Part shown: piece by piece, positions 3,558-12,676 of the stretch
Layout: each line of letters begins with the position of its first letter
Position numbering within the stretch: the stretch's first letter is position 1
From: a virus
IMG/VR virus record: IMGVR_UViG_3300045988_127422
Span: 1-39,207 of that record
Length of the DNA: 39,207 bases
Reading direction: 5' to 3' (one strand)
Position numbers and translations under genes: made by a program
Notes under the pieces: model-generated
The model's input: the letters and a program-made list of their open reading frames with translations, nothing else
What the model was told of the DNA's origin: nothing
The model's database searches: none

Positions 3558-3806
3558 CTATAATTTAGTTACATTTAACATCACATAGCCTTCTTTGAAT
3601 CCATCGTTAGTAGTGATGCTGCGAATCTGTGTCATTCTAAATAAACCAGTATCCATTTCTTTTCCTTCGTCTAACGATACTTGTTTAAATAACACATAAT
3701 CTTGTTCATTGATTTGCTCATCAGTCAAATCAAGAATAATAAAATCGTGTTCTTGGAAAAAATTCCATAATTTAGTATTTAAATTGATTTCATGTGTTTT
3801 AACCAT
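3558..3806 (-). CDS. DUF3850-like (ASCH/PUA-fold) protein
   Basis: THEINLNTKLWNFF...DYVLFKQ...GLFRMTQIRSIT...GFKEGYVMLNV resembles the DUF3850 pattern (THELKi.p.yF... gD.l.l.E...tGr....i..i.....gl..gyvil). SD is AATAGGAGGC. Confidence 0.45.
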   Translation of the reverse strand: MVKTHEINLNTKLWNFFQEHDFIILDLTDEQINEQDYVLFKQVSLDEGKEMDTGLFRMTQIRSITTNDGFKEGYVMLNVTKL

Positions 3807-3849
3807 TTAAAAGCCTCCTATTAATATAAAAAAAGCGAGGTAAACAAAA

Positions 3850-4743
3850 ATGCTATATTCTGACAAATTACATTCTTGGTTAAAAGAAAAGAAAATCTAT
3901 CTAAAATACAGCACTTACACAAATTATTGTAATGTGATTCATAATCACATACTGCCATCACTTGGCAGTTATCAAATCGAGGAACTGAACAATGATATTC
4001 TTCAGGAAATGATTCTTCAAAAACTTGAAAATGGTCGTAAAGATGGAAAAGGTGGCATTTCTTTTAAATATGCCAAAGACATTATTCAAATTCTGAAGTT
4101 CACACTTCCATTTAAAATCGATATTCAACTTCCATACCATCCTCCTACGGCGGTAGAAATTTTTGAAAAAGAAAATCAAATCTCATTGATTAATCACCTC
4201 CAATCTGAGATTAATTACAAAAACTTTGGAATCCTGTTATGCATCCACACTGGAATACGCATAGGTGAACTATGCGCTTTGAAATGGTCTGATATAAATG
4301 TACAGACCAAACTTTTAAAAATTGACAAAACCATGATTCGCACATATACAAAAGAAGATGGTAGTCACTTGTATGTGACACCACCTAAATCACGTTCTAG
4401 CACTCGTATGATTCCCTTGAACACATGGATAATGCATTATGCAATCCTTCTACAAGGTGATGCAGATAACTATGTATTAACAAATCGAGATAAACCAATA
4501 GAGCCTAATAAATACAGGCTTTACTACAATAGAGTTTTAAAAGTGCTTGACCTACCACATCTCAAATTCCATGCACTCAGACACACATTCGCAACAAGAT
4601 GTATTGAATGTGGTTGTGATTATAAATCACTGAGCGAATTGTTAGGACACTCCAACGTATCAATCACAATGAACATCTACGTTCATCCACAAATGGAATT
4701 GAAGCGTAAATGCGTTGAACTCTTGTGTGACTACTACAAGTAA
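3850..4743 (+). CDS. Tyrosine site-specific recombinase (Xer/phage-integrase family, 297 aa); proposed shufflon invertase
   Basis: Catalytic signature: GIRIGELCALKWSDI (Arg I), HALRHTFATRC (H-x-x-R), LLGHSNVSITMNIYVH (His and the nucleophilic Tyr). It has an N-terminal SAM-like domain. Its stop codon (4741..4743) lies 2 nt from the first recombination core. Confidence 0.9.
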   Translation: MLYSDKLHSWLKEKKIYLKYSTYTNYCNVIHNHILPSLGSYQIEELNNDILQEMILQKLENGRKDGKGGISFKYAKDIIQILKFTLPFKIDIQLPYHPPTAVEIFEKENQISLINHLQSEINYKNFGILLCIHTGIRIGELCALKWSDINVQTKLLKIDKTMIRTYTKEDGSHLYVTPPKSRSSTRMIPLNTWIMHYAILLQGDADNYVLTNRDKPIEPNKYRLYYNRVLKVLDLPHLKFHALRHTFATRCIECGCDYKSLSELLGHSNVSITMNIYVHPQMELKRKCVELLCDYYK

Positions 4744-4745
4744 AT

Positions 4746-4758
4746 GTATGTCATTTAC
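4746..4758 (+). repeat. Shufflon core site 1, GTATGTCATTTAC
   Basis: One of six copies of GTATGTCnTTTAC, preceded by A[T/A/G]. In every copy the ATG TCn TTT AC phase encodes MSFT. Confidence 0.85.
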
Positions 4759-5050
4759 TACTGATTCTATTGGTGGAGAATATAAACATAAACTTCAAGA
4801 AATTGAAATGCCAAAACATCATCATGGCGAACGTATATTGGTTAAAGGATATTCTGAATGGGATTCAATGACCACAAGTGATTATGGAATTATAATTGAC
4901 TATTCAACGAAAAACTATGTCGTTCCAAAAACACACGTAAATGCAGCTGATGTGACCACGTTTTGCTATACTGGGTTTGCAGGAGATAACGTTCATCATA
5001 ATAATATCCAACCTTATATTGTGACTTATTTTTGGCGAAGAACGAAGTAA
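4748..5050 (+). CDS. Silent RBP C-terminal cassette A (100 aa, MSFTTDSIGGEYKHKL...HHNNIQPYIVTYFWRRTK)
   Basis: No SD upstream. It starts in the core site. It shares the GGEYKH.L..EMP.H.H ... HNN.QPY....FWRR.K framework with the 3' end of the RBP gene. Confidence 0.8.
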   Translation: MSFTTDSIGGEYKHKLQEIEMPKHHHGERILVKGYSEWDSMTTSDYGIIIDYSTKNYVVPKTHVNAADVTTFCYTGFAGDNVHHNNIQPYIVTYFWRRTK

Positions 5051-5057
5051 TGTTTAT

Positions 5058-5070
5058 GTATGTCTTTTAC
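5058..5070 (+). repeat. Shufflon core site 2, GTATGTCTTTTAC
   Basis: Read directly. Confidence 0.85.
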
Positions 5071-5308
5071 ATCTGGAAAGTTGTATGGCGAATACAAACA
5101 CAAACTAACAATACAAGAAATACCTAGTCATGCACACAAATTTAATGACTGCGCTTGGATTGATGGAAAAGGAAATATTCAATCCGCATCAAACAACTCC
5201 TGGTTTAACGGTGGATTTATGAGCGATACAACAAGCGCAGGAGGGGATAAAGCTCATAATAATTTACAACCATCATTTGTCGTTTTCTTTTGGAGACGAA
5301 CTGCATAA
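5060..5308 (+). CDS. Silent RBP C-terminal cassette B (82 aa)
   Basis: MSFTSGKLYGEYKHKLTIQEIPSHAH...AHNNLQPSFVVFFWRRTA. No SD. Confidence 0.8.
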   Translation: MSFTSGKLYGEYKHKLTIQEIPSHAHKFNDCAWIDGKGNIQSASNNSWFNGGFMSDTTSAGGDKAHNNLQPSFVVFFWRRTA

Positions 5309-5321
5309 GTATGTCCTTTAC
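5309..5321 (+). repeat. Shufflon core site 3, GTATGTCCTTTAC
   Basis: Read directly. It starts 1 nt after cassette B's stop codon. Confidence 0.85.
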
Positions 5322-5613
5322 TTCTTCCGGAACTGGAGGAGAATTCAAACATCAATTAAATTATTACGAAATGCCAAGCCATGTGCATAATGAGTATGCA
5401 ATGGTTGAAGGATACACTGGATGGGATACTTTTACGCCATTACCATATTCAATGTTGTTTAGATTTGGCGGAGGCGACTATCGAGAAAACGTATCTCAAT
5501 ACCACGCAGCTAGAGTTTCATTAAACACATTCACTTCAAGCGAAGGAGGAAGTCAAAGTCACAATAACATTCAGCCTTATATCGTAGTTTATTTCTGGAG
5601 AAGGACAAAGTAA
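5311..5613 (+). CDS. Silent RBP C-terminal cassette C (100 aa)
   Basis: MSFTSSGTGGEFKHQLNYYEMPSHVH...SHNNIQPYIVVYFWRRTK. No SD. Its stop abuts the stop of cassette D, tail to tail with zero spacer. Confidence 0.8.
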   Translation: MSFTSSGTGGEFKHQLNYYEMPSHVHNEYAMVEGYTGWDTFTPLPYSMLFRFGGGDYRENVSQYHAARVSLNTFTSSEGGSQSHNNIQPYIVVYFWRRTK

Positions 5614-5904
5614 TCACTTGATTCTTTTCCAGAAGAATACTGTTGTATATGGTTGAATGACATTATGCGCTTCGTTATTGCCAACATATGAGCCATATCT
5701 ATTTTTATCGTAATCATGAATAAATGGAGTAAATGTTCCTGATCGATTATTGTCTCCTAAATAAGTCATGTTATAGAATCCTGTATTACCGCCATATGCA
5801 GTAATAATATCCCAATCATGTGGACGGTGAGCGTGTGATGGCATTTCGTTCAAAGATAGTAAATGCTTATATTCGCCACCCACTTGATTGGCAGTAAAGG
5901 ACAT
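5614..5904 (-). CDS. Silent RBP C-terminal cassette D (96 aa), same orientation as the expressed gene
   Basis: MSFTANQVGGEYKHLLSLNEMPSHAH...AHNVIQPYTTVFFWKRIK. No SD. Confidence 0.8.
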   Translation of the reverse strand: MSFTANQVGGEYKHLLSLNEMPSHAHRPHDWDIITAYGGNTGFYNMTYLGDNNRSGTFTPFIHDYDKNRYGSYVGNNEAHNVIQPYTTVFFWKRIK

Positions 5905-5906
5905 AC
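5894..5906 (-). repeat. Shufflon core site 4 (minus strand GTATGTCCTTTAC)
   Basis: The plus strand reads GTAAAGGACATAC. Confidence 0.85.
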
Positions 5907-5924
5907 CTTGAATAACGATTATAT

Positions 5925-5937
5925 GTATGTCATTTAC
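5925..5937 (+). repeat. Shufflon core site 5, GTATGTCATTTAC
   Basis: Read directly. It lies 18 bp from site 4, head to head. Confidence 0.85.
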
Positions 5938-6205
5938 TGCTGGATGGATTGGCGGTAACTACTTTCATAAACTTACGCGTGAAGAGCTACCGAGCCATAC
6001 GCATTGGATCTTAGACCAACAAACTGATGTAACAACTGCATTATATGGTAATTCATATAGTGATGTGCCTTTTACGAGAGCCACTGAACGTACTAATAGA
6101 ACTAATTATTATTGGTACGGTCAAACATGGCGAACAGGCGGAAACAAACCACACGATAATGTACAACCTTACGTGGTAACTTACTTTTGGAGACGTATCA
6201 AGTAG
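5927..6205 (+). CDS. Silent RBP C-terminal cassette E (92 aa)
   Basis: MSFTAGWIGGNYFHKLTREELPSHTH...PHDNVQPYVVTYFWRRIK. No SD. Its stop abuts the RBP stop, tail to tail with zero spacer. Confidence 0.8.
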   Translation: MSFTAGWIGGNYFHKLTREELPSHTHWILDQQTDVTTALYGNSYSDVPFTRATERTNRTNYYWYGQTWRTGGNKPHDNVQPYVVTYFWRRIK

Positions 6206-8065
6206 CTATTTTACCCTTCGCCAAAAGAAAACAACTAAATATGGTTGCACGTTATTGTGTGGAATATTGTTACCAGAACCATTTGTATGAATACTATTTA
6301 CATTGTGACTTTGACCATCAGAATGATGCGAACCATTAATGGTCATAAATTCCCACGGAGTAGTTGTTAAAACGCCAGACGTACCCCATATACCAACTTC
6401 GTGTGCGTGAGCAGGCATTTCAGAATATGATAACGTATGATAGTATTCTCCACCTTCAGAATTGGATGTAAAGGACATACTTGTACTACCATCGTTTCCA
6501 GTACCTTCACCAACCAAAGTTCGACCTTGGCCAAACTGTACCCATGTCCCGCCTAGGAATGTTCCAGGGTTCTTTTTATCATAAGTGATGTATACTGCAC
6601 CAACCGGAAATATCTTATTTAAGAACATAGGCGCTACAATATCACCTAATACTGTTAATGTGTCTTTTTGATTACTATCTTGGCCGAAGAAAGTTAATGA
6701 TCTTCCATCTTTACCAAAGTTAATTAAGGAATAAGTAGGAGTTACAGTAAATATCTGCCATGAATAATCATTCATGAACTTATCCTTAACACCGAACGCA
6801 ACCTCATAAGAGCTTGTTGCAGATGTAAATAAATTACCTGCTTTATAGTCTTGCTCAAGCGCATAGTTGTTGTCCCATGAATTTATTTTAGTCCAACTAG
6901 TAGCACCACTCGCTCTATATTGGATATAGAATGATGTTACATTCTTATTGCTTAAACTAGTAAATCCAACTTTGAAGTGTAATAAAGCATATGTACCACT
7001 TGCCTCATCAACTACATAACTTGAGTTAGTACGTTTTGCAGTTACATTAGTCAAACTTGGCGAGCTATATGCCGACACAGTAACTGAACCGCTCTTAGAT
7101 GCGGTACGACCACGTGAATCTGTAACTGTGATTGTGTACGACAACTTGCCACTTCCCTGTACAGTACCTGTAGTAAATGAACTATCATTGTATGTTTGTC
7201 CTTCAAATTTAGTTGATACAGATGTAACAGTTGAGCCTTGACTACCACTTGTAGCAATTGAGAACTTTAATCTTGATTGACTTTGAACATGTTGACCTAT
7301 TCCTACGCAGATTGAATTTATATCAGATATCGAGACCGTTCCAACGCTAGGAACGACTCCACTTCTTACTTTAATTGTTGCATTTACTGATTTTGAGCCA
7401 ACCGAAGTTGAACCACTGAATGTTTCTAATGTAAATGTAGCAATTCCGCTTGTCGAATTAGGTAAGTCCTTTTCCCATGCGGTAGGAATCGTATAAGAAA
7501 AAGTGGGTGTTAATGTCCCACTTATCGTTGTTAATTCACTTGTTTTACCATTCCATGTTGCGTAGATTTTATGTGTAAAGTTTTTTGAAGCACTCGAGCC
7601 ATTAATATTTATAGTTTTACCACATTCAATGCTAGGGCTATCAATAGATATGCTTGATGCTCTTGGAATAGTTGTCAATTTAACAGTACCACTGCAAGAA
7701 CCAGTAATAGGTGCATAATATCCAGAGTTACTTCCACTGAAAGATGCGCTTGCTGAAATTGTTTTTGAACCATCTGCATCATGTGAAATAGTTACCGTTC
7801 CACTTTTTACACCAACAAGAGTTCCAGCTGGAACATTAGGTGTAAAGCTTTGATCTAACACTTGAGTACCATTCACGGATACTTTAAATGTTTCTGGAAT
7901 TCCATTGTGTGTATGGTACTGCGTATTAGATCGAATACCAACCCACCACTCTACATATGATGTGTTGTTTTCAACAGAATAAGATATTTCATTGATTCGT
8001 AATATTAACGAGTATTTATCCCACTGACCACTACCAATTTGTATTCCACCACTAAATTCTGCCAT
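6206..8065 (-). CDS. Receptor-binding / tail-fibre protein with a C-terminal tail-collar-like domain (currently expressed tip = 6206..6478)
   Basis: It is the last structural gene after Tal. It has Ser/Thr/Gly-rich beta-type repeats. The C-terminus reads FPVGAVYITYDKKNPGTFLGGTWVQFGQGRTLVG...SMSFTSNSEGGEYYHTLSYSEMPAHAH...PHNNVQPYLVVFFWRRVK, the phage tail collar (PF07484-like) pattern. Confidence 0.8.
   Translation of the reverse strand: MAEFSGGIQIGSGQWDKYSLILRINEISYSVENNTSYVEWWVGIRSNTQYHTHNGIPETFKVSVNGTQVLDQSFTPNVPAGTLVGVKSGTVTISHDADGSKTISASASFSGSNSGYYAPITGSCSGTVKLTTIPRASSISIDSPSIECGKTININGSSASKNFTHKIYATWNGKTSELTTISGTLTPTFSYTIPTAWEKDLPNSTSGIATFTLETFSGSTSVGSKSVNATIKVRSGVVPSVGTVSISDINSICVGIGQHVQSQSRLKFSIATSGSQGSTVTSVSTKFEGQTYNDSSFTTGTVQGSGKLSYTITVTDSRGRTASKSGSVTVSAYSSPSLTNVTAKRTNSSYVVDEASGTYALLHFKVGFTSLSNKNVTSFYIQYRASGATSWTKINSWDNNYALEQDYKAGNLFTSATSSYEVAFGVKDKFMNDYSWQIFTVTPTYSLINFGKDGRSLTFFGQDSNQKDTLTVLGDIVAPMFLNKIFPVGAVYITYDKKNPGTFLGGTWVQFGQGRTLVGEGTGNDGSTSMSFTSNSEGGEYYHTLSYSEMPAHAHEVGIWGTSGVLTTTPWEFMTINGSHHSDGQSHNVNSIHTNGSGNNIPHNNVQPYLVVFFWRRVK
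6468..6480 (-). repeat. Shufflon core site 6, inside the expressed RBP gene (minus strand GTATGTCCTTTAC)
   Basis: The plus strand reads GTAAAGGACATAC and encodes the SMSFT junction of the RBP. Confidence 0.85.
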
Positions 8066-8069
8066 TTAA

Positions 8070-11000
8070 TCACCCTACTTTCTTGAAGTCTAGCGAGCCA
8101 TTTGCTCTTGGCACGAATCCAAATGCACCAACTTTCAAAGACTGTGTGAATTGTCCATCTGTGATGTACATTGTTTGATCGTTTATATAAGTAACTTTCG
8201 CACCATTCTTTTGAATCGACCATTCTTGGTTTGTAATCTTAGTTTTAAATGCACTGTCTGATTTACCTAAAGTCAACGCATCATTATCGAAAGACATATA
8301 ACTGTTTACGTTATCTGCAGTTTGTTTTAAACCATCCAATCTACCATTCACACTGCTGATTTGACCATTCATTTCATTTTTAGCATCGGTCACGCTTCGA
8401 TTAATTGACCACGTAAAATCGCTCTTAGTTTGGCTAAACTGAGTAGATACTTCTTCTTTATAATGATTCAAAGCCGAATTTGATACGTAAGTTTCGCTAA
8501 CTTTCGCAGTAATTTCATTCGCTTTTGTCTCAATGGCAGATTGTCGTTCTGTACGTTCTTCATTGACTGCTTCCCATGAACTATCACATACAGGAGTGGT
8601 ATAAACTGTTGAAGCAGGATTCTTATAAACCACTTTATACCTAGTCCATAAATATTTACCATTTGACCACGTAGGCATTGATTCAACCCATGAGCCACCG
8701 GTTTGAGTGGTTTTCGAGTCGCTCATGTAATACTGTTGTGTCATACTAGCTACACCAGTACCAGTCGCACCAGTAGGGCCTTGAGCCCCTGTTGCTCCTT
8801 TATCACCTTTCAATCCCTGAGGTCCTTGAGGACCAACATCTCCTTTTAATCCCTGTACTCCTTGCGGTCCACGTTCTCCTGTGGCACCAGTGGCTCCTCT
8901 ATCTCCTTGAGCTCCTTTTATTTTGGCCCATGTATAACTTGAAACAGAATTAGAGTCGGCCTCAACAAAATCTGTATAAGTACCAATATAATCCCCTACA
9001 GTCTCTCCTGAATTAGAAGTAAATGTTTTACCACCATCATTTGAATACTTTACATGAAAATATGTAGTTTTTCCTGTAGCTCCATCTTTACCAGGAGTTC
9101 CATTAGTTCCATCTTTTACAGTTTGACTTGTTTTTGTACCATCAGGGTTATTTACAGTAATAGTTGTAGTGTTTCCACTTTTGCTAACAGACACAGTTGG
9201 TGATTTACCATCAGCGCCTTTAGGACCAGTATCTCCTTTTAGTCCTTGAGGACCCTGTGAACCTGTCTCGCCCTTAACTCCTTGTGGCCCTTGAGGTCCT
9301 GTTTGTCCGATTTCGCCTTTTTCACCTTTCGCTCCGTTCACACCCATACGAGCTACAGAATATCCAACAGTAGGAGTTCCGCTTGTATAGTTAGTTGTAG
9401 TCTTTGTCCATAAATATGAACCTTGAGCAACAGATGGAATTGTAGAAGACCATGTTCCTGTAGGTACAGTAGTGCCAGAAGTAGAAGCTTGGTATTCAAC
9501 GGATGTACTTTTAACACCACGACCATCAAACTCACCACTATTAGCTCTATCAGTTAGACTATTGGCTTTATTTAATGCACTTGATGCATTACTGTTTGCA
9601 GTATTTGCCACTCCTTTAATTTCTGTAACAGATGTAGCTTGTAATTTAATAGCTTTTGAATTCTGTTCAATTGCAGTTGTGTTAGAAGTAACTTTGTTTG
9701 TTAGTTCTGCAAGGTCTTTCTGAGCTTGTTCTGCTTTAGCTTTTGCATCATCCGCCACTCCTTGAGCCGTCTTTGCATTATTGATTGCCGTAGTTGCGTT
9801 GCTTTGAGCCTTAGTTGCATCAGACTGAGCTTTCTGTACTGCAGATTCTGCGTTTGTTAAACGTGTTTGAGCTTTTGTAATTTCACTCTCAGTCGCATCA
9901 ACACGACCTGTGACTGTTTCTAAATTAGCTTTTGCATCTGCCAATTCTTTATTAGCATTGTCTAAGTTAGTTTGAGCACTATCTGCTTTTTTCTTCGCTT
10001 GGTCTGCTAGAGTTTGAGCGCTCTGAGCATTACCTAAAGCTTTATCTGCTTGAGTTTGAGCATCCGTTGCTTTCTTTGTTGCATCAATAATATCTTTCTG
10101 AGCTTTAGTTGTATCAGATTGCAACTTTTCAATTGAACTTGCTTGAGTTGTGATTGAATCGGCATTTTGTTTAATCTTGGTATTTAAACTACCTTCAATG
10201 CTTGTTAAATCACTCTTAGAAGCATAAGTTTCTGATACAGTAGTCGACAATTCACCAACTTTCTTTTCAATTTCTGTTGTAACATCTGCATGAATTGTTT
10301 TTGATTCCGTAGTTAAATCAACTTTTGTAGCGTATGTTTCTTTAACTGTATTGATTTCATTTGCATTTGCATTTGCTTTATCAACCGCATCTTGAATTTG
10401 TTGCTTTGAATCAGTGATATCGCCTTTAATCGCATCAATCTGTTTCTGAGCGTTACCAGTACTAGTATTGGCATCTTGTGCTAGTTGCTTAGCTTCACTT
10501 GATTGAGCATTTGCAGTTGTAGCTAATTCATTCGCTTTACTTGCAGCCGTTTGAGCTTGTGTTGCTTTTTCAACTGCTTCTTTTGATTGCACATTTGCTT
10601 GAGACACTTGAGTGTGAATCTCACCGATTTGCGCATCAATCTCATTCCAGGTATTATCAAATATAGCTTTCGTATACTTGATTTCACTAGGATTAGCATA
10701 CGTACATTTCCAACGTTTCCAAAGGAATTTATCTGATTGATAAACCACATTACCAACGAACCATTCGCCACCAATTAATTCGGTTTGTGATGTTGAATAA
10801 TAGAATTGTTCTTCGGCACTCACAAATGACTGACCATCTTCCCCTTTAATTGCACTCCATCGGTATTTGGTTGGGTCATCACTGCCATATTGCTTTGAGT
10901 CAGAATACTGACCAATAAATTTACGATTTGAGTCTGTCAAACTGAAATCAACACGACCATCTGAACTGTTGGCATAGGCAATATGCACATATGCACTTGT

Positions 11001-12452
11001 TCCATTCTGACCATCTTGTAGTCGCATTACAGTGACTTCTGCGCTTGCTTTAAGTATTTCACCACTCATTGCTTTAAATCGATATACGGCCTTTTCTGTG
11101 AAATCTGAAGCGTTGACTGTGATTGTTTGGCTAGTTGATAATTGCACATCATCTTTATACCAAATGATTGAATACTTAGATGTAATATCAACACCATCAT
11201 TTTTAACTAATGCAGTCAATTTAGTTGAATCTGAATCATTTTTAAAAAGAACCCCATTTGAAGATACAATCGAGCCTTCATAAACTTTTTTTAACTCAAT
11301 CATCTTGTTCATTTCTGAAATAAGAGCCGAACTAATCTGTGATTGTTTTTCTTCAAAGTTATCAAAAATTGTCTTGCACTTTTCTGTATCTGTAAAACAA
11401 ATCTCTTGTTCCGTTATTCGTGCTTCTAAATATAAAGTAGGACTATACTCCGCATCTTCGATGGTAAATGTATCGCCAATATCAGCATCAATATATGCAT
11501 CTACATCGTATGTAACTTTAGGAACACAATTCTTTTTCAATTGAGCTAGTGCTTGACCATATAAGGTTTCTACACTGTCTGTTTCATAAGACCACACTAG
11601 CACTGCATACATATCGTTTGAATGATTTGTTAATAACGTACTAGGAAATCTATCTCTAGATTGAGGTGCAAGTATATTGTTACCTTGAACTTTATACAAA
11701 ACGTTTCCATTTGAATCTTTTACAACACGGCCACTAATCGAGTTAAGTTGTAACCCATTATTACCCGTAGGTCTGATACCTGTATACAACTCTGTAATAT
11801 CACTTGTTTTAGTGATTCCGTAAACATCATTAGGATATCTTAAGATCGTACTGCGTTTATCTGTTCCCATACCTTGAACTGAATCTGAATGAGCACGATA
11901 AATATTCAACACAACATTCTTCAACGAGTAATCATCATTTAATTGAGTAATAAACTCTAGCTCTGCATCAAATACATTTGCGATTGAATACAATCTTGCA
12001 AGCACTGTATCACTGCCAGTCCATTCGTGACTAATCTTCTTATTAGATACTTCATTTCGGCCAATTGTGAATGATTGCTCAAATCCATACGCACTAACAT
12101 ATTCTGCAAATGACATCGCTCTAGGCGCTTTATATGCATCTACATATTCATTCGTTAATTCAAGGCAAAGACCATAGGCGGTAACGTTTGTCGTGTTACC
12201 ACCTTTTTCTACGTTCATGATCGTTAAATAATAGCCTTTGTTCTTTCTTGTAAAGCTCAGTTTATTTCCTTCAACTAAAAAGGCTGCATCATCATGTGCA
12301 GTCAATGTTGTAAATTCAAATGTATATGCCGAGCCTTTCAAGTATGTATGCAAGGTTTCATCAAAGTAATGCATTGCGCTAGGTACTGTATTGTCTAAAA
12401 AAGCTAGAACCTTGTCGTATGGAGTCAATACTGCTATTCTGATTTGTTCCAT
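8070..12452 (-). CDS. Tal-like tail tip / minor structural protein (about 1460 aa) with coiled-coil and collagen-like regions
   Basis: It follows Dit. The N-terminal roughly 380 aa resemble the prophage-tail (Tal, SPP1 gp21-type) domain. It contains repeated Y.H.(A/K)Y(A/S)...Y.W..IKG and QYY.S.S....GG.W.....(K/S)(Y/F)LW.R modules. I prefer the ATG at 12452 (MEQIRI) because GGAGG lies 10 nt upstream and it forms a TAATG junction with the upstream frame. The track start at 12461 is only 1 nt from the SD. Confidence 0.8.
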   Translation of the reverse strand: MEQIRIAVLTPYDKVLAFLDNTVPSAMHYFDETLHTYLKGSAYTFEFTTLTAHDDAAFLVEGNKLSFTRKNKGYYLTIMNVEKGGNTTNVTAYGLCLELTNEYVDAYKAPRAMSFAEYVSAYGFEQSFTIGRNEVSNKKISHEWTGSDTVLARLYSIANVFDAELEFITQLNDDYSLKNVVLNIYRAHSDSVQGMGTDKRSTILRYPNDVYGITKTSDITELYTGIRPTGNNGLQLNSISGRVVKDSNGNVLYKVQGNNILAPQSRDRFPSTLLTNHSNDMYAVLVWSYETDSVETLYGQALAQLKKNCVPKVTYDVDAYIDADIGDTFTIEDAEYSPTLYLEARITEQEICFTDTEKCKTIFDNFEEKQSQISSALISEMNKMIELKKVYEGSIVSSNGVLFKNDSDSTKLTALVKNDGVDITSKYSIIWYKDDVQLSTSQTITVNASDFTEKAVYRFKAMSGEILKASAEVTVMRLQDGQNGTSAYVHIAYANSSDGRVDFSLTDSNRKFIGQYSDSKQYGSDDPTKYRWSAIKGEDGQSFVSAEEQFYYSTSQTELIGGEWFVGNVVYQSDKFLWKRWKCTYANPSEIKYTKAIFDNTWNEIDAQIGEIHTQVSQANVQSKEAVEKATQAQTAASKANELATTANAQSSEAKQLAQDANTSTGNAQKQIDAIKGDITDSKQQIQDAVDKANANANEINTVKETYATKVDLTTESKTIHADVTTEIEKKVGELSTTVSETYASKSDLTSIEGSLNTKIKQNADSITTQASSIEKLQSDTTKAQKDIIDATKKATDAQTQADKALGNAQSAQTLADQAKKKADSAQTNLDNANKELADAKANLETVTGRVDATESEITKAQTRLTNAESAVQKAQSDATKAQSNATTAINNAKTAQGVADDAKAKAEQAQKDLAELTNKVTSNTTAIEQNSKAIKLQATSVTEIKGVANTANSNASSALNKANSLTDRANSGEFDGRGVKSTSVEYQASTSGTTVPTGTWSSTIPSVAQGSYLWTKTTTNYTSGTPTVGYSVARMGVNGAKGEKGEIGQTGPQGPQGVKGETGSQGPQGLKGDTGPKGADGKSPTVSVSKSGNTTTITVNNPDGTKTSQTVKDGTNGTPGKDGATGKTTYFHVKYSNDGGKTFTSNSGETVGDYIGTYTDFVEADSNSVSSYTWAKIKGAQGDRGATGATGERGPQGVQGLKGDVGPQGPQGLKGDKGATGAQGPTGATGTGVASMTQQYYMSDSKTTQTGGSWVESMPTWSNGKYLWTRYKVVYKNPASTVYTTPVCDSSWEAVNEERTERQSAIETKANEITAKVSETYVSNSALNHYKEEVSTQFSQTKSDFTWSINRSVTDAKNEMNGQISSVNGRLDGLKQTADNVNSYMSFDNDALTLGKSDSAFKTKITNQEWSIQKNGAKVTYINDQTMYITDGQFTQSLKVGAFGFVPRANGSLDFKKVG
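8754..8915 (-). repeat. Collagen-like Gly-X-Y block 2 (18 triplets) within Tal
   Basis: GAQGDRGATGATGERGPQGVQGLKGDVGPQGPQGLKGDKGATGAQGPTGATGTG. Confidence 0.9.
9201..9335 (-). repeat. Collagen-like Gly-X-Y block 1 (15 triplets) within Tal
   Basis: GAKGEKGEIGQTGPQGPQGVKGETGSQGPQGLKGDTGPKGADGKS. Confidence 0.9.
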
Positions 12453-12676
12453 TATAACCATGCCTCCCTTATTCTAGCTTTCACTGTCGGCTTCGATTTT
12501 GACCAACTAGAGCACGTAGTCTTTATTTCTGTAGTTCCTACTGGTGCTTTAAAATACTTAGTTCCTAAAACCTCATCTTGAGGTCTAGACATTCCGTTTA
12601 CATAAACGTGTGATGACTTACCATCAATTGTAATTTTCGTACCATTAGGATATCTATTAGGAATATCTCTCCATTT
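12452..12676 (-). other. In-frame 74-codon continuation of Dit beyond its TAA stop (conserved Dit C-terminus)
   Basis: Directly after TAA (12677..12679) the same frame stays open: KWRDIPNRYPNGTKITIDGKSSHVYVNGMSRPQDEVLGTKYFKAPVGTTEIKTTCSSWSKSKPTVKARIREAWL*. It has no start codon or SD of its own at its 5' end. Its TAA overlaps the Tal ATG (TAATG), as at other junctions in this operon. Confidence 0.6.

Follow-up and report, generated by a model that had tools for sequence, protein, structure and literature searches.

Shufflons in which a tyrosine recombinase acts on the receptor-binding protein (RBP) of a phage have been described since 2018, and the type of system considered here is already known. 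The Rin shufflon was found in prophages of Bifidobacterium breve and Bifidobacterium longum (Mavrich et al. 2018, PMC6109161), shufflons of the Rin type have also been reported in prophages of Eggerthella lenta (PMC8778435), and programmed inversions have been reported in a gene with a tail-collar domain (PMC9881135). In the present study we analysed the complete IMG/VR virus record IMGVR_UViG_3300045988_127422, a gut-phage sequence of 39,207 bases that we refer to as the window, in which a recombinase gene, five silent cassettes and the 3' end of an RBP gene lie side by side. We propose, with a probability of about 0.75, that this locus is a Rin-type phage shufflon, where multiple inversion by a tyrosine recombinase changes the C-terminus of the tail RBP through a core site located in the middle of a Gp10_C domain. 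The constant gene encodes the beginning of the domain, with the predicted N-terminal helix followed by two strands, and each cassette encodes a 26-aa lead-in, an unrelated insert of 39-57 aa and a closing motif. An inversion between the expressed site and any oppositely oriented one fuses another cassette in frame, with strand exchange within GTATGTC.

The locus resembles Rin in its layout: one end of the array is occupied by a tyrosine recombinase gene of the phage whose product is XerD-like and armless, a constant 5' part of the RBP gene goes with several promoterless 3' cassettes in both orientations, and a short asymmetric site, at which the inversions take place, is present both at the cassette starts and in the expressed gene. 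It differs in the site itself, which is the 13-bp GTATGTCNTTTAC instead of the 11-bp rix TTCCCTAACCC, and in the host lineage, which is here within the Firmicutes and probably the Erysipelotrichaceae. Furthermore, Rin cassettes correspond roughly to a whole RBP head of the TP901-1 type, whereas those described here are half-domains that complement a constant half. With Gin, Cin and Min (of Mu, P1 and p15B) the locus has in common that inversion joins alternative 3' parts to a constant 5' part of a tail gene, in their case a tail-fibre gene, altering the host range, and Min is likewise a multi-segment shufflon. Those enzymes are serine invertases, however, while the present one is a PF00589 tyrosine recombinase with no resolvase domain. 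In the Gin, Cin and Min systems a chaperone gene is exchanged along with a large segment of the fibre, in contrast to the abutting cassettes of 82-100 codons found here, which bring no chaperone. The R64 shufflon, where Rci acts on PilV, shares the tyrosine recombinase, the multiple inverted sites within coding sequence and the exchange of the C-terminal segment of an adhesin. From the consensus of 65 sites of related loci and the known form of sfx sites, we take the present site to be asymmetric in the manner of R64 sfx, with a conserved core and one conserved arm. The R64 target is the pilus adhesin of a conjugative plasmid instead of a phage RBP, and neither the sfx sequence nor the extra C-terminal domain of Rci is present here, points that were not checked in detail.

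The anatomy of the locus can be read directly. On the plus strand the order is a tyrosine recombinase gene (3850-4743, plus strand), five short reading frames and the tail gene (6206-8065, minus strand). The latter encodes the RBP of 619 aa, labelled tail protein by PHROGs, with DUF859 at residues 17-432 and Gp10_C at residues 482-618. Six cassettes, namely the five silent frames and the last 90 codons of the RBP gene, all start with MSFT and all encode second halves of Gp10_C; A, B, C and E are on the plus strand, D and F on the minus strand, and the silent ones are promoterless. Cassette A occupies 4748-5050 (100 aa; insert 4826-4996, 57 aa; Gp10_C profile positions 56-139), B 5060-5308 (82 aa; insert 5138-5254, 39 aa; profile positions 55-139), C 5311-5613 (100 aa; insert 5389-5559, 57 aa), D 5614-5904 (96 aa; insert 5668-5826, 53 aa) and E 5927-6205 (92 aa; insert 6005-6151, 49 aa). 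The expressed cassette F (6206-6478, 90 aa plus stop) forms RBP residues 530-619, its insert of 47 aa (residues 556-602) being encoded at 6260-6400. The whole array spans 1735 bases, with 0-18 nt between neighbouring cassettes, which leaves no room for a chaperone gene. Cassettes that meet tail to tail do so without a spacer, with back-to-back stop codons at 5611-5616 (TAA/TCA) and 6203-6208 (TAG/CTA).

Each cassette start carries the 13-bp core, and the same core lies inside the expressed gene. The six copies are sA (4746-4758, plus strand, GTATGTCATTTAC), sB (5058-5070, plus strand, GTATGTCTTTTAC), sC (5309-5321, plus strand, GTATGTCCTTTAC), sD (5894-5906, minus strand, GTATGTCCTTTAC), sE (5925-5937, plus strand, GTATGTCATTTAC) and sF (6468-6480, minus strand), the last of these within the RBP gene at codons S529-M530-S531-F532-T533. 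Even with one mismatch allowed there are six cores in the 39.2 kb, all at cassette starts, compared with 0.33 expected from shuffled sequences. A preliminary description of this DNA had placed the system at 4746-6480, and these two positions are exactly the opening base of sA and the final base of sF. The presumed invertase is an Xer-like protein of 297 aa whose frame is complete and whose stop codon ends 2 nt before the first core. It gives full-length matches to the SAM-like core-binding domain PF14659 (E 3e-11) and the catalytic domain PF00589 (E 3e-28) and to nothing else, no arm-binding domain being present; it falls below every NCBIfam cut-off, the best resemblance being to XerA/XerC. 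In 16 related loci the far end of the array likewise has a homologue of this recombinase.

The position of the site within a single domain is equally a direct observation. Pfam PF21939 (Gp10_C) matches RBP residues 482-618 over positions 2-139 of its 139 (E 5e-23, 82.9 bits, the gathering cut-off being 27 bits), and all 60 of 60 family members match it. Single cassettes on their own match only from about position 55 to 139 (E 3e-7 to 8e-11), and the constant gene supplies positions 2 to about 54 (6479-6622, minus strand, RBP residues 482-529, FPVGAVYITY...GGTWVQFGQGRTLVGEGTGNDGSTS). Thus the crossover falls within one compact domain, as the preliminary description had claimed. That description had also called the domain tail-collar-like, which does not apply in the sense of the Pfam Collar family: the domain is Gp10_C, and PF07484 has no match in the RBP at E <= 1 and matches 0/60 domain homologues at E <= 10. 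The resemblance is that of a related gp10/gp12 fold rather than of the Pfam Collar family. A profile of the family recovers T4 gp10 (2FKK, E 1.7e-15) and, at residues 94-266, the short-tail-fibre protein of SU10 (7z47_I, E 1.8e-6); T4 gp12 and gp37 were not reached in the sequence-profile searches with the domain family.

Among 5.8 billion proteins searched there were 1269 relatives. Three contigs (L042, L043 and L044) represent the same phage from three other public samples (ERZ27280889, ERR11773969 and SRR26887002) put together by separate assemblers, and the pieces they share with the window are 96.6-100% identical in nucleotide sequence, all but one at 99.2% or above. When the RBP gene is put on the plus strand, the window reads F+ E- D+ C- B- A- rec-, L043 reads C+ D- E+ F- B- A- rec-, L044 starts E+ F-, and L042 reads D+ C- A+ E+ F- B- rec-. 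L043 is therefore the window after a single inversion between sF and sC (F+ E- D+ C- becoming C+ D- E+ F-). At each of the two reciprocal junctions the agreement with the parental flanks is perfect, with the switch inside the 13-bp core, and this is the signature of conservative site-specific recombination. L044 corresponds to an inversion of F and E between sF and sE, and a search over the permitted inversions found L042 four of them away from the window; the breakpoints of all three contigs are at sF. The core at the L044 junction has the variable base of E and not that of F, so that the exchange took place within GTATGTC; the interval of exchange is in this way seen directly. The switch is active in nature, as observed between samples.

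Cassette C is expressed in L043 (protein P0045, 100% amino-acid identity, constant part 99.2% identical), D in L042 (P0051, 100% identity, constant part 99.8% identical) and E in L044 (P0112, 99% identity, constant part 99.6% identical). Cassette D already points the same way as the RBP gene and can therefore be expressed only after two or more inversions. Tails similar to A and B are expressed on somewhat more distant backbones than those of C, D and E: P0086 carries an A-like tail (89% identical) on a constant part 96% identical to that of the window, and the expressed cassette of L020 is 80% identical to B. Permitted inversions give 160 arrangements in total, and each of the six cassettes can be expressed. 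Moreover, 13 of the 35 related IMG/VR contigs (L005, L008-L014, L018, L023, L037, L039 and L040) stop at their 3' ends 8-120 nt past the core of the expressed site. Assemblies break there when arrangements are mixed, and these ends thus point to mixed arrangements in the corresponding metagenomes. Several further related contigs stop one or two cassettes later.

It could be argued that the differences in arrangement arose by homologous recombination or by faulty assembly, and that the array is a fossil. The inversion was indeed observed between samples only, metagenome assemblies can mis-join repeats, and on an evolutionary time scale homologous recombination does occur in the conserved flanks. 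However, the reciprocal junctions of L043 are exact and confined to the 13-bp core, the flanks being otherwise dissimilar, and 13 bases are far too short for exchange of the RecA type. Three independent samples and assemblers would also have to yield, by accident, arrangements every one of which is reachable by permitted inversions. The recombinase frame is open and complete at 297 aa, with full-length PF00589 and PF14659, and is kept at the array end in 16 loci. Taken against these data, a fossil array is a highly improbable explanation, and an active shufflon accounts for the arrangements. The L043 recombinase gene (L043:7322-8173) is only 91% identical to that of the window, against 96.6-100% for the RBP constant part and the cassettes, and this divergence suggests a mosaic exchange of the invertase gene.

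The core encodes (S)MSFT, a conserved stretch in the middle of Gp10_C that is predicted to be a loop. Across 65 sites of related loci its consensus is A-N-GTATGTC-N-TTTAC. At the synonymous positions of these sites AGT is used in 64/65 and TTT in 65/65, the third base of the Ser codon being free, and this fixation in shufflon-bearing loci indicates an additional constraint at the DNA level. The peptide is nevertheless conserved in its own right, as stand-alone Gp10_C proteins (138-167 aa) of another siphophage lineage keep GNDGSTSM(N/T)FT although their DNA core is broken. That lineage has no cassette array and no tyrosine invertase, and its DUF859 protein lacks Gp10_C. The idea that STSMSFT is retained solely for the DNA site was ruled out, because Gp10_C proteins outside shufflons retain STSM(N/T)FT with a broken core. 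The shufflon exploits a stretch where all variants must share sequence regardless. A general rule is illustrated in this way, namely that a site must lie where the variants share DNA, i.e. within a structurally conserved peptide. Two of the stand-alone proteins (L045:5001-5504 and L046:5001-5462, 153-167 aa) begin with an N-terminal anchor MA.YLD..GL.YFWGKIK and are encoded upstream of Prophage_tail.

Immediately after MSFT the conservation changes abruptly. In 60 full-length homologues the constant half is nearly invariant over residues 471-529, and the mean column entropy rises from 0.11 bits in that half to 1.14 in the lead-in and 2.58 in the insert, before dropping to 0.79 in the closing segment. 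Among the six cassettes the pairwise identity is 0.59 for the 26-aa lead-in and 0.67 for the 17-aa closing segment, and falls to 0.20 for the insert, where shuffled sequence gives 0.19 +/- 0.04. The inserts measure 39 aa in B, 47 in F, 49 in E, 53 in D and 57 in both A and C. On the N-terminal side M1, S2, F3, T4, G10, H14, L16, E20, P22, H24 and H26 are invariant in the six, and on the C-terminal side one Gly before the last motif, H74, Q78, P79, F85, W86 and R88; across the 60 homologues the invariant residues of the variable half are G539, H543, L545, E549, P551, H553, H555, G598, H603, P608 and W615. The fixed pattern of the lead-in is GG.Y.H.L...E.P.H.H and that of the closing motif H(N/D)N.QPY....FW(R/K)R. 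The flank motifs named in the preliminary description are accordingly real, their matching residues being invariant in all six cassettes, and its statement that the inserts are unlike each other holds, their 20% identity being the shuffled level. Its length estimate of 35-65 residues was right in that the length varies, although the true range among the six is 39-57 aa. An enrichment in Trp, Tyr, Gly and Asn is likewise real but modest, the inserts having 3.3% W against 1.7% in the constant part, 7.0% Y against 4.2%, 9.3% N against 5.7% and 11.9% G against 10.0%. Diversity, which had been described as confined to the insert, is concentrated there but not limited to it, since nine non-motif positions of the lead-in reach 1.9-3.3 bits in the 60 homologues and are as variable as the insert.

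On a wider scale, 153 distinct related cassettes fall into 21 unrelated insert clusters of 37-68 aa, and the family framework accepts at least 21 unrelated types of insert. The picture of a loop swap on a fixed scaffold describes the framework well, but what is swapped is the whole second half of the domain: the unit comprises the 26-aa lead-in with its His motifs, the insert and the C-terminal strand, and is not a loop. Inserts and closing segments also reassort, as 52 pairs of cassettes have a common insert with a different C-flank and 51 pairs have unrelated inserts with identical C-flanks, while mosaics at the lead-in are rare (2 pairs). This reassortment indicates homologous exchange at HNN.QPY as a second and slower level of shuffling. 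Diversifying selection restricted to the insert, which had been anticipated, was not found. Within cassette types pN/pS is 0.28 in the lead-in, 0.30 in the insert and 0.30 in the closing strand, a rough result from Nei-Gojobori counts on 62 same-type pairs that are non-independent. Values of about 0.3 everywhere indicate discrete alternative modules under purifying selection and not an ongoing diversification of a loop. Diversity-generating retroelements were set aside, as the variation consists of discrete cassettes and not of point changes. A protein of 733 aa (P0036) carries an F-type cassette (83% identical) on a constant part only 24% identical to that of the window and without DUF859, from which cassettes appear to be common to different RBP backbones.

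H553 and H555, encoded at 6401-6409 (minus strand) in cassette F, form an HxH that is invariant in the six cassettes and the 60 homologues, and 200 of 209 distinct variable halves carry an HxH. The canonical HxH occurs together with the His of HNN (H603) in 170 of these 209 halves, HxH alone in 1, H603 alone in 7 and neither in 31, counts that are phylogenetically non-independent. When the canonical HxH is missing, an HxH is present elsewhere (e.g. GG.Y.H.H or HDH) in 29 of 38 cases, compared with 5% expected by chance. For the short fibre of SU10, binding of Fe by HxH pairs has been proposed, in the same way as for T4 and JUB59 (PMC9509320). By this precedent and by the co-occurrence with the HNN His, the HxH, and possibly H543 with H603, would hold a metal at the three-fold axis, coordinated by six His from three chains, in the manner of T4 gp12/gp37 and the SU10 short fibre. 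The His pattern fits relocatable axial metal sites, and it also suggests that H543 and H603 may constitute a second one.

A different role for H543, E549, H553, H555 and H603 would be that of a catalytic metal centre, for instance in an enzyme modifying cell-wall glycans. The invariance of four His and one Glu in the six cassettes and the 60 homologues and the co-occurrence of HxH with H603 would be compatible with it. However, no enzyme family was matched in the profile searches, the neighbours of the motifs are hypervariable, as the surroundings of an active site seldom are, these His are missing from some family members, and the HxH motifs known from phage fibres are structural (PMC9509320). 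We regard a catalytic centre as very unlikely and retain a structural metal as the role that these residues would play in the shufflon. Related shufflons also combine structurally different classes of cassettes. In L016 (7859-8176, minus strand) and L017 (7856-8173, minus strand) there are "MSYT" cassettes with no conserved His and a mismatched core GTATGTCATATAC, and in another cassette of L017 (8195-8470, plus strand) the HxH has moved to GKYKHLH, E.P.H.H and HNN being both absent.

With respect to the fold, the core common to gp10, gp11 and gp12 consists of a helix, a three-stranded sheet beside it, a further small sheet away from it and large inserted loops (PMC3004832). An AlphaFold model of the domain alone, built from a more diverse alignment (A5), shows as its confident elements a helix at 2-15 and strands at 21-24 and 38-47 in the constant half and a strand at 139-147 in the cassette, with weaker strands within the insert; as modelled, this order of elements would fit the published core. 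The last strand of the cassette would pair with the constant half, completing its core sheet, and the insert would make up the stalk-distal portion of the trimer, in contact with the host receptor. Homology with T4 gp10 and with the SU10 short tail fibre argues for this distal, ligand-contacting position. To T4 gp10 the homology extends over the whole domain, an N-terminal strand motif and the QPY...W.R strand being common to both. The SU10 fibre has a central domain like the tip of T4 gp12 and a distal receptor-binding domain (PMC9509320). The proposed receptor-binding domain of SU10 gp16 (7Z47 chain I), stabilised by HxH and iron, is made of what lies after the conserved N-terminal half and before the closing strand. 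Since the last strand of gp16 can be aligned with our closing strand, the distal part of gp16 would be an insertion into the domain. Unlike the present cassettes, gp16 has its HxH pairs deeper in the insertion and not directly after an E.P motif, and it is accompanied by neither cassettes nor a recombinase; the structure given for its receptor-binding part comes from AlphaFold and was fitted to a 15-A map.

Several observations weigh against the shufflon reading and against the role given to its insert, in addition to the between-sample nature of the inversions. The adjoining recombinase is taken as the invertase by adjacency only. The full-length AlphaFold model, with 60 close homologues in an alignment that had no variation in the constant half, reaches a pLDDT of about 90 over residues 1-240, but drops below 50 over residues 442-542 and yields no usable C-terminal domain. 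The domain-only model has a mean pLDDT of 64.6, with 85-91 in the constant half, 45-67 in the insert and values below 50 in the junction loop, and in Foldseek gp10 ranks first with it at a weak TM of 0.30 (E 3e-3). Nine of the 209 variable halves contain no HxH at all, and silent cassettes in L016 and L017 are devoid of all four conserved His, so that members of the family can do without a metal site. T4 gp10, for its part, is a fixed component of the baseplate that neither binds a receptor nor undergoes inversion, and it has PATETDEE instead of an HxH at the aligned position. Its residues 553-565, aligned within the insert, are a disordered loop that contacts gp7 (PMC3004832).

These features of gp10 lead to another explanation, in which the insert is a docking surface for a second virion protein and the shufflon changes baseplate partners or accessory fibres instead of acting directly on the choice of receptor. 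T4 gp10 is the closest solved relative, and its C-terminal domain binds both gp7 and gp9, residues 553-565 touching the former (PMC3004832). In the present phage, however, the domain forms the very C-terminal end of the product of the final tail gene ahead of lysis, each of at least 21 unrelated inserts would require a partner that varies along with it, and no partner gene is contained in the invertible DNA, the cassettes being 0-18 nt apart. The SU10 homologue is moreover a short tail fibre whose corresponding insertion is a receptor-binding domain (PMC9509320). We consider a docking surface improbable, and exchange of a receptor-contacting insert in the RBP remains our preferred interpretation.

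A broader proposal can be put forward tentatively, as one that may well turn out to be wrong. The half-domain of Gp10_C with its STSMSFT junction might be a natural grafting scaffold used across phage lineages, in which one invariant half folds with dozens of unrelated inserts of 37-68 aa because a closing strand and an axial metal clamp made of two six-His sites (one from the HxH, the other from H543 with H603) come with every cassette. A lost His site would then be replaced by an HxH elsewhere, and exchange would operate at two levels, through inversion at the 5' junction and through homologous exchange at the HNN.QPY flank. The new detail that the locus contributes is modest, namely the documented split of a single small Gp10_C domain by a recombination site. 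It reveals the residues of a gp10-like fold that have to stay constant and the 40-60 residues that can be exchanged as a block. With at least 21 unrelated natural inserts on one framework, the related sequences represent a test set for structure prediction, and they are useful for work on the folding of trimeric fibre tips whose chaperone is not swapped and on the receptors of phages of little-studied gut Firmicutes.

The record has a CheckV completeness figure of 94% and a G+C content of about 36%, and its late genes are on the minus strand. Megablast of positions 3800-8100 against GenBank phages gave no match, and a scan of genome contigs found no relative. One named database protein points to Holdemanella, or else to a different genus of the Erysipelotrichaceae, as the probable host. 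The model of RBP residues 1-240 (window 7346-8065, in the DUF859 part), with its pLDDT of about 90, is predicted to be a chain of beta-sandwich domains, and Foldseek with the DUF859 part matched only generic arrays of the FN3, Ig and macroglobulin type. Directly upstream of the RBP gene lies the gene for a Tal-like host-specificity protein of 1463 aa (8070-12461). The RBP gene, the last of the tail genes, precedes those for lysis.

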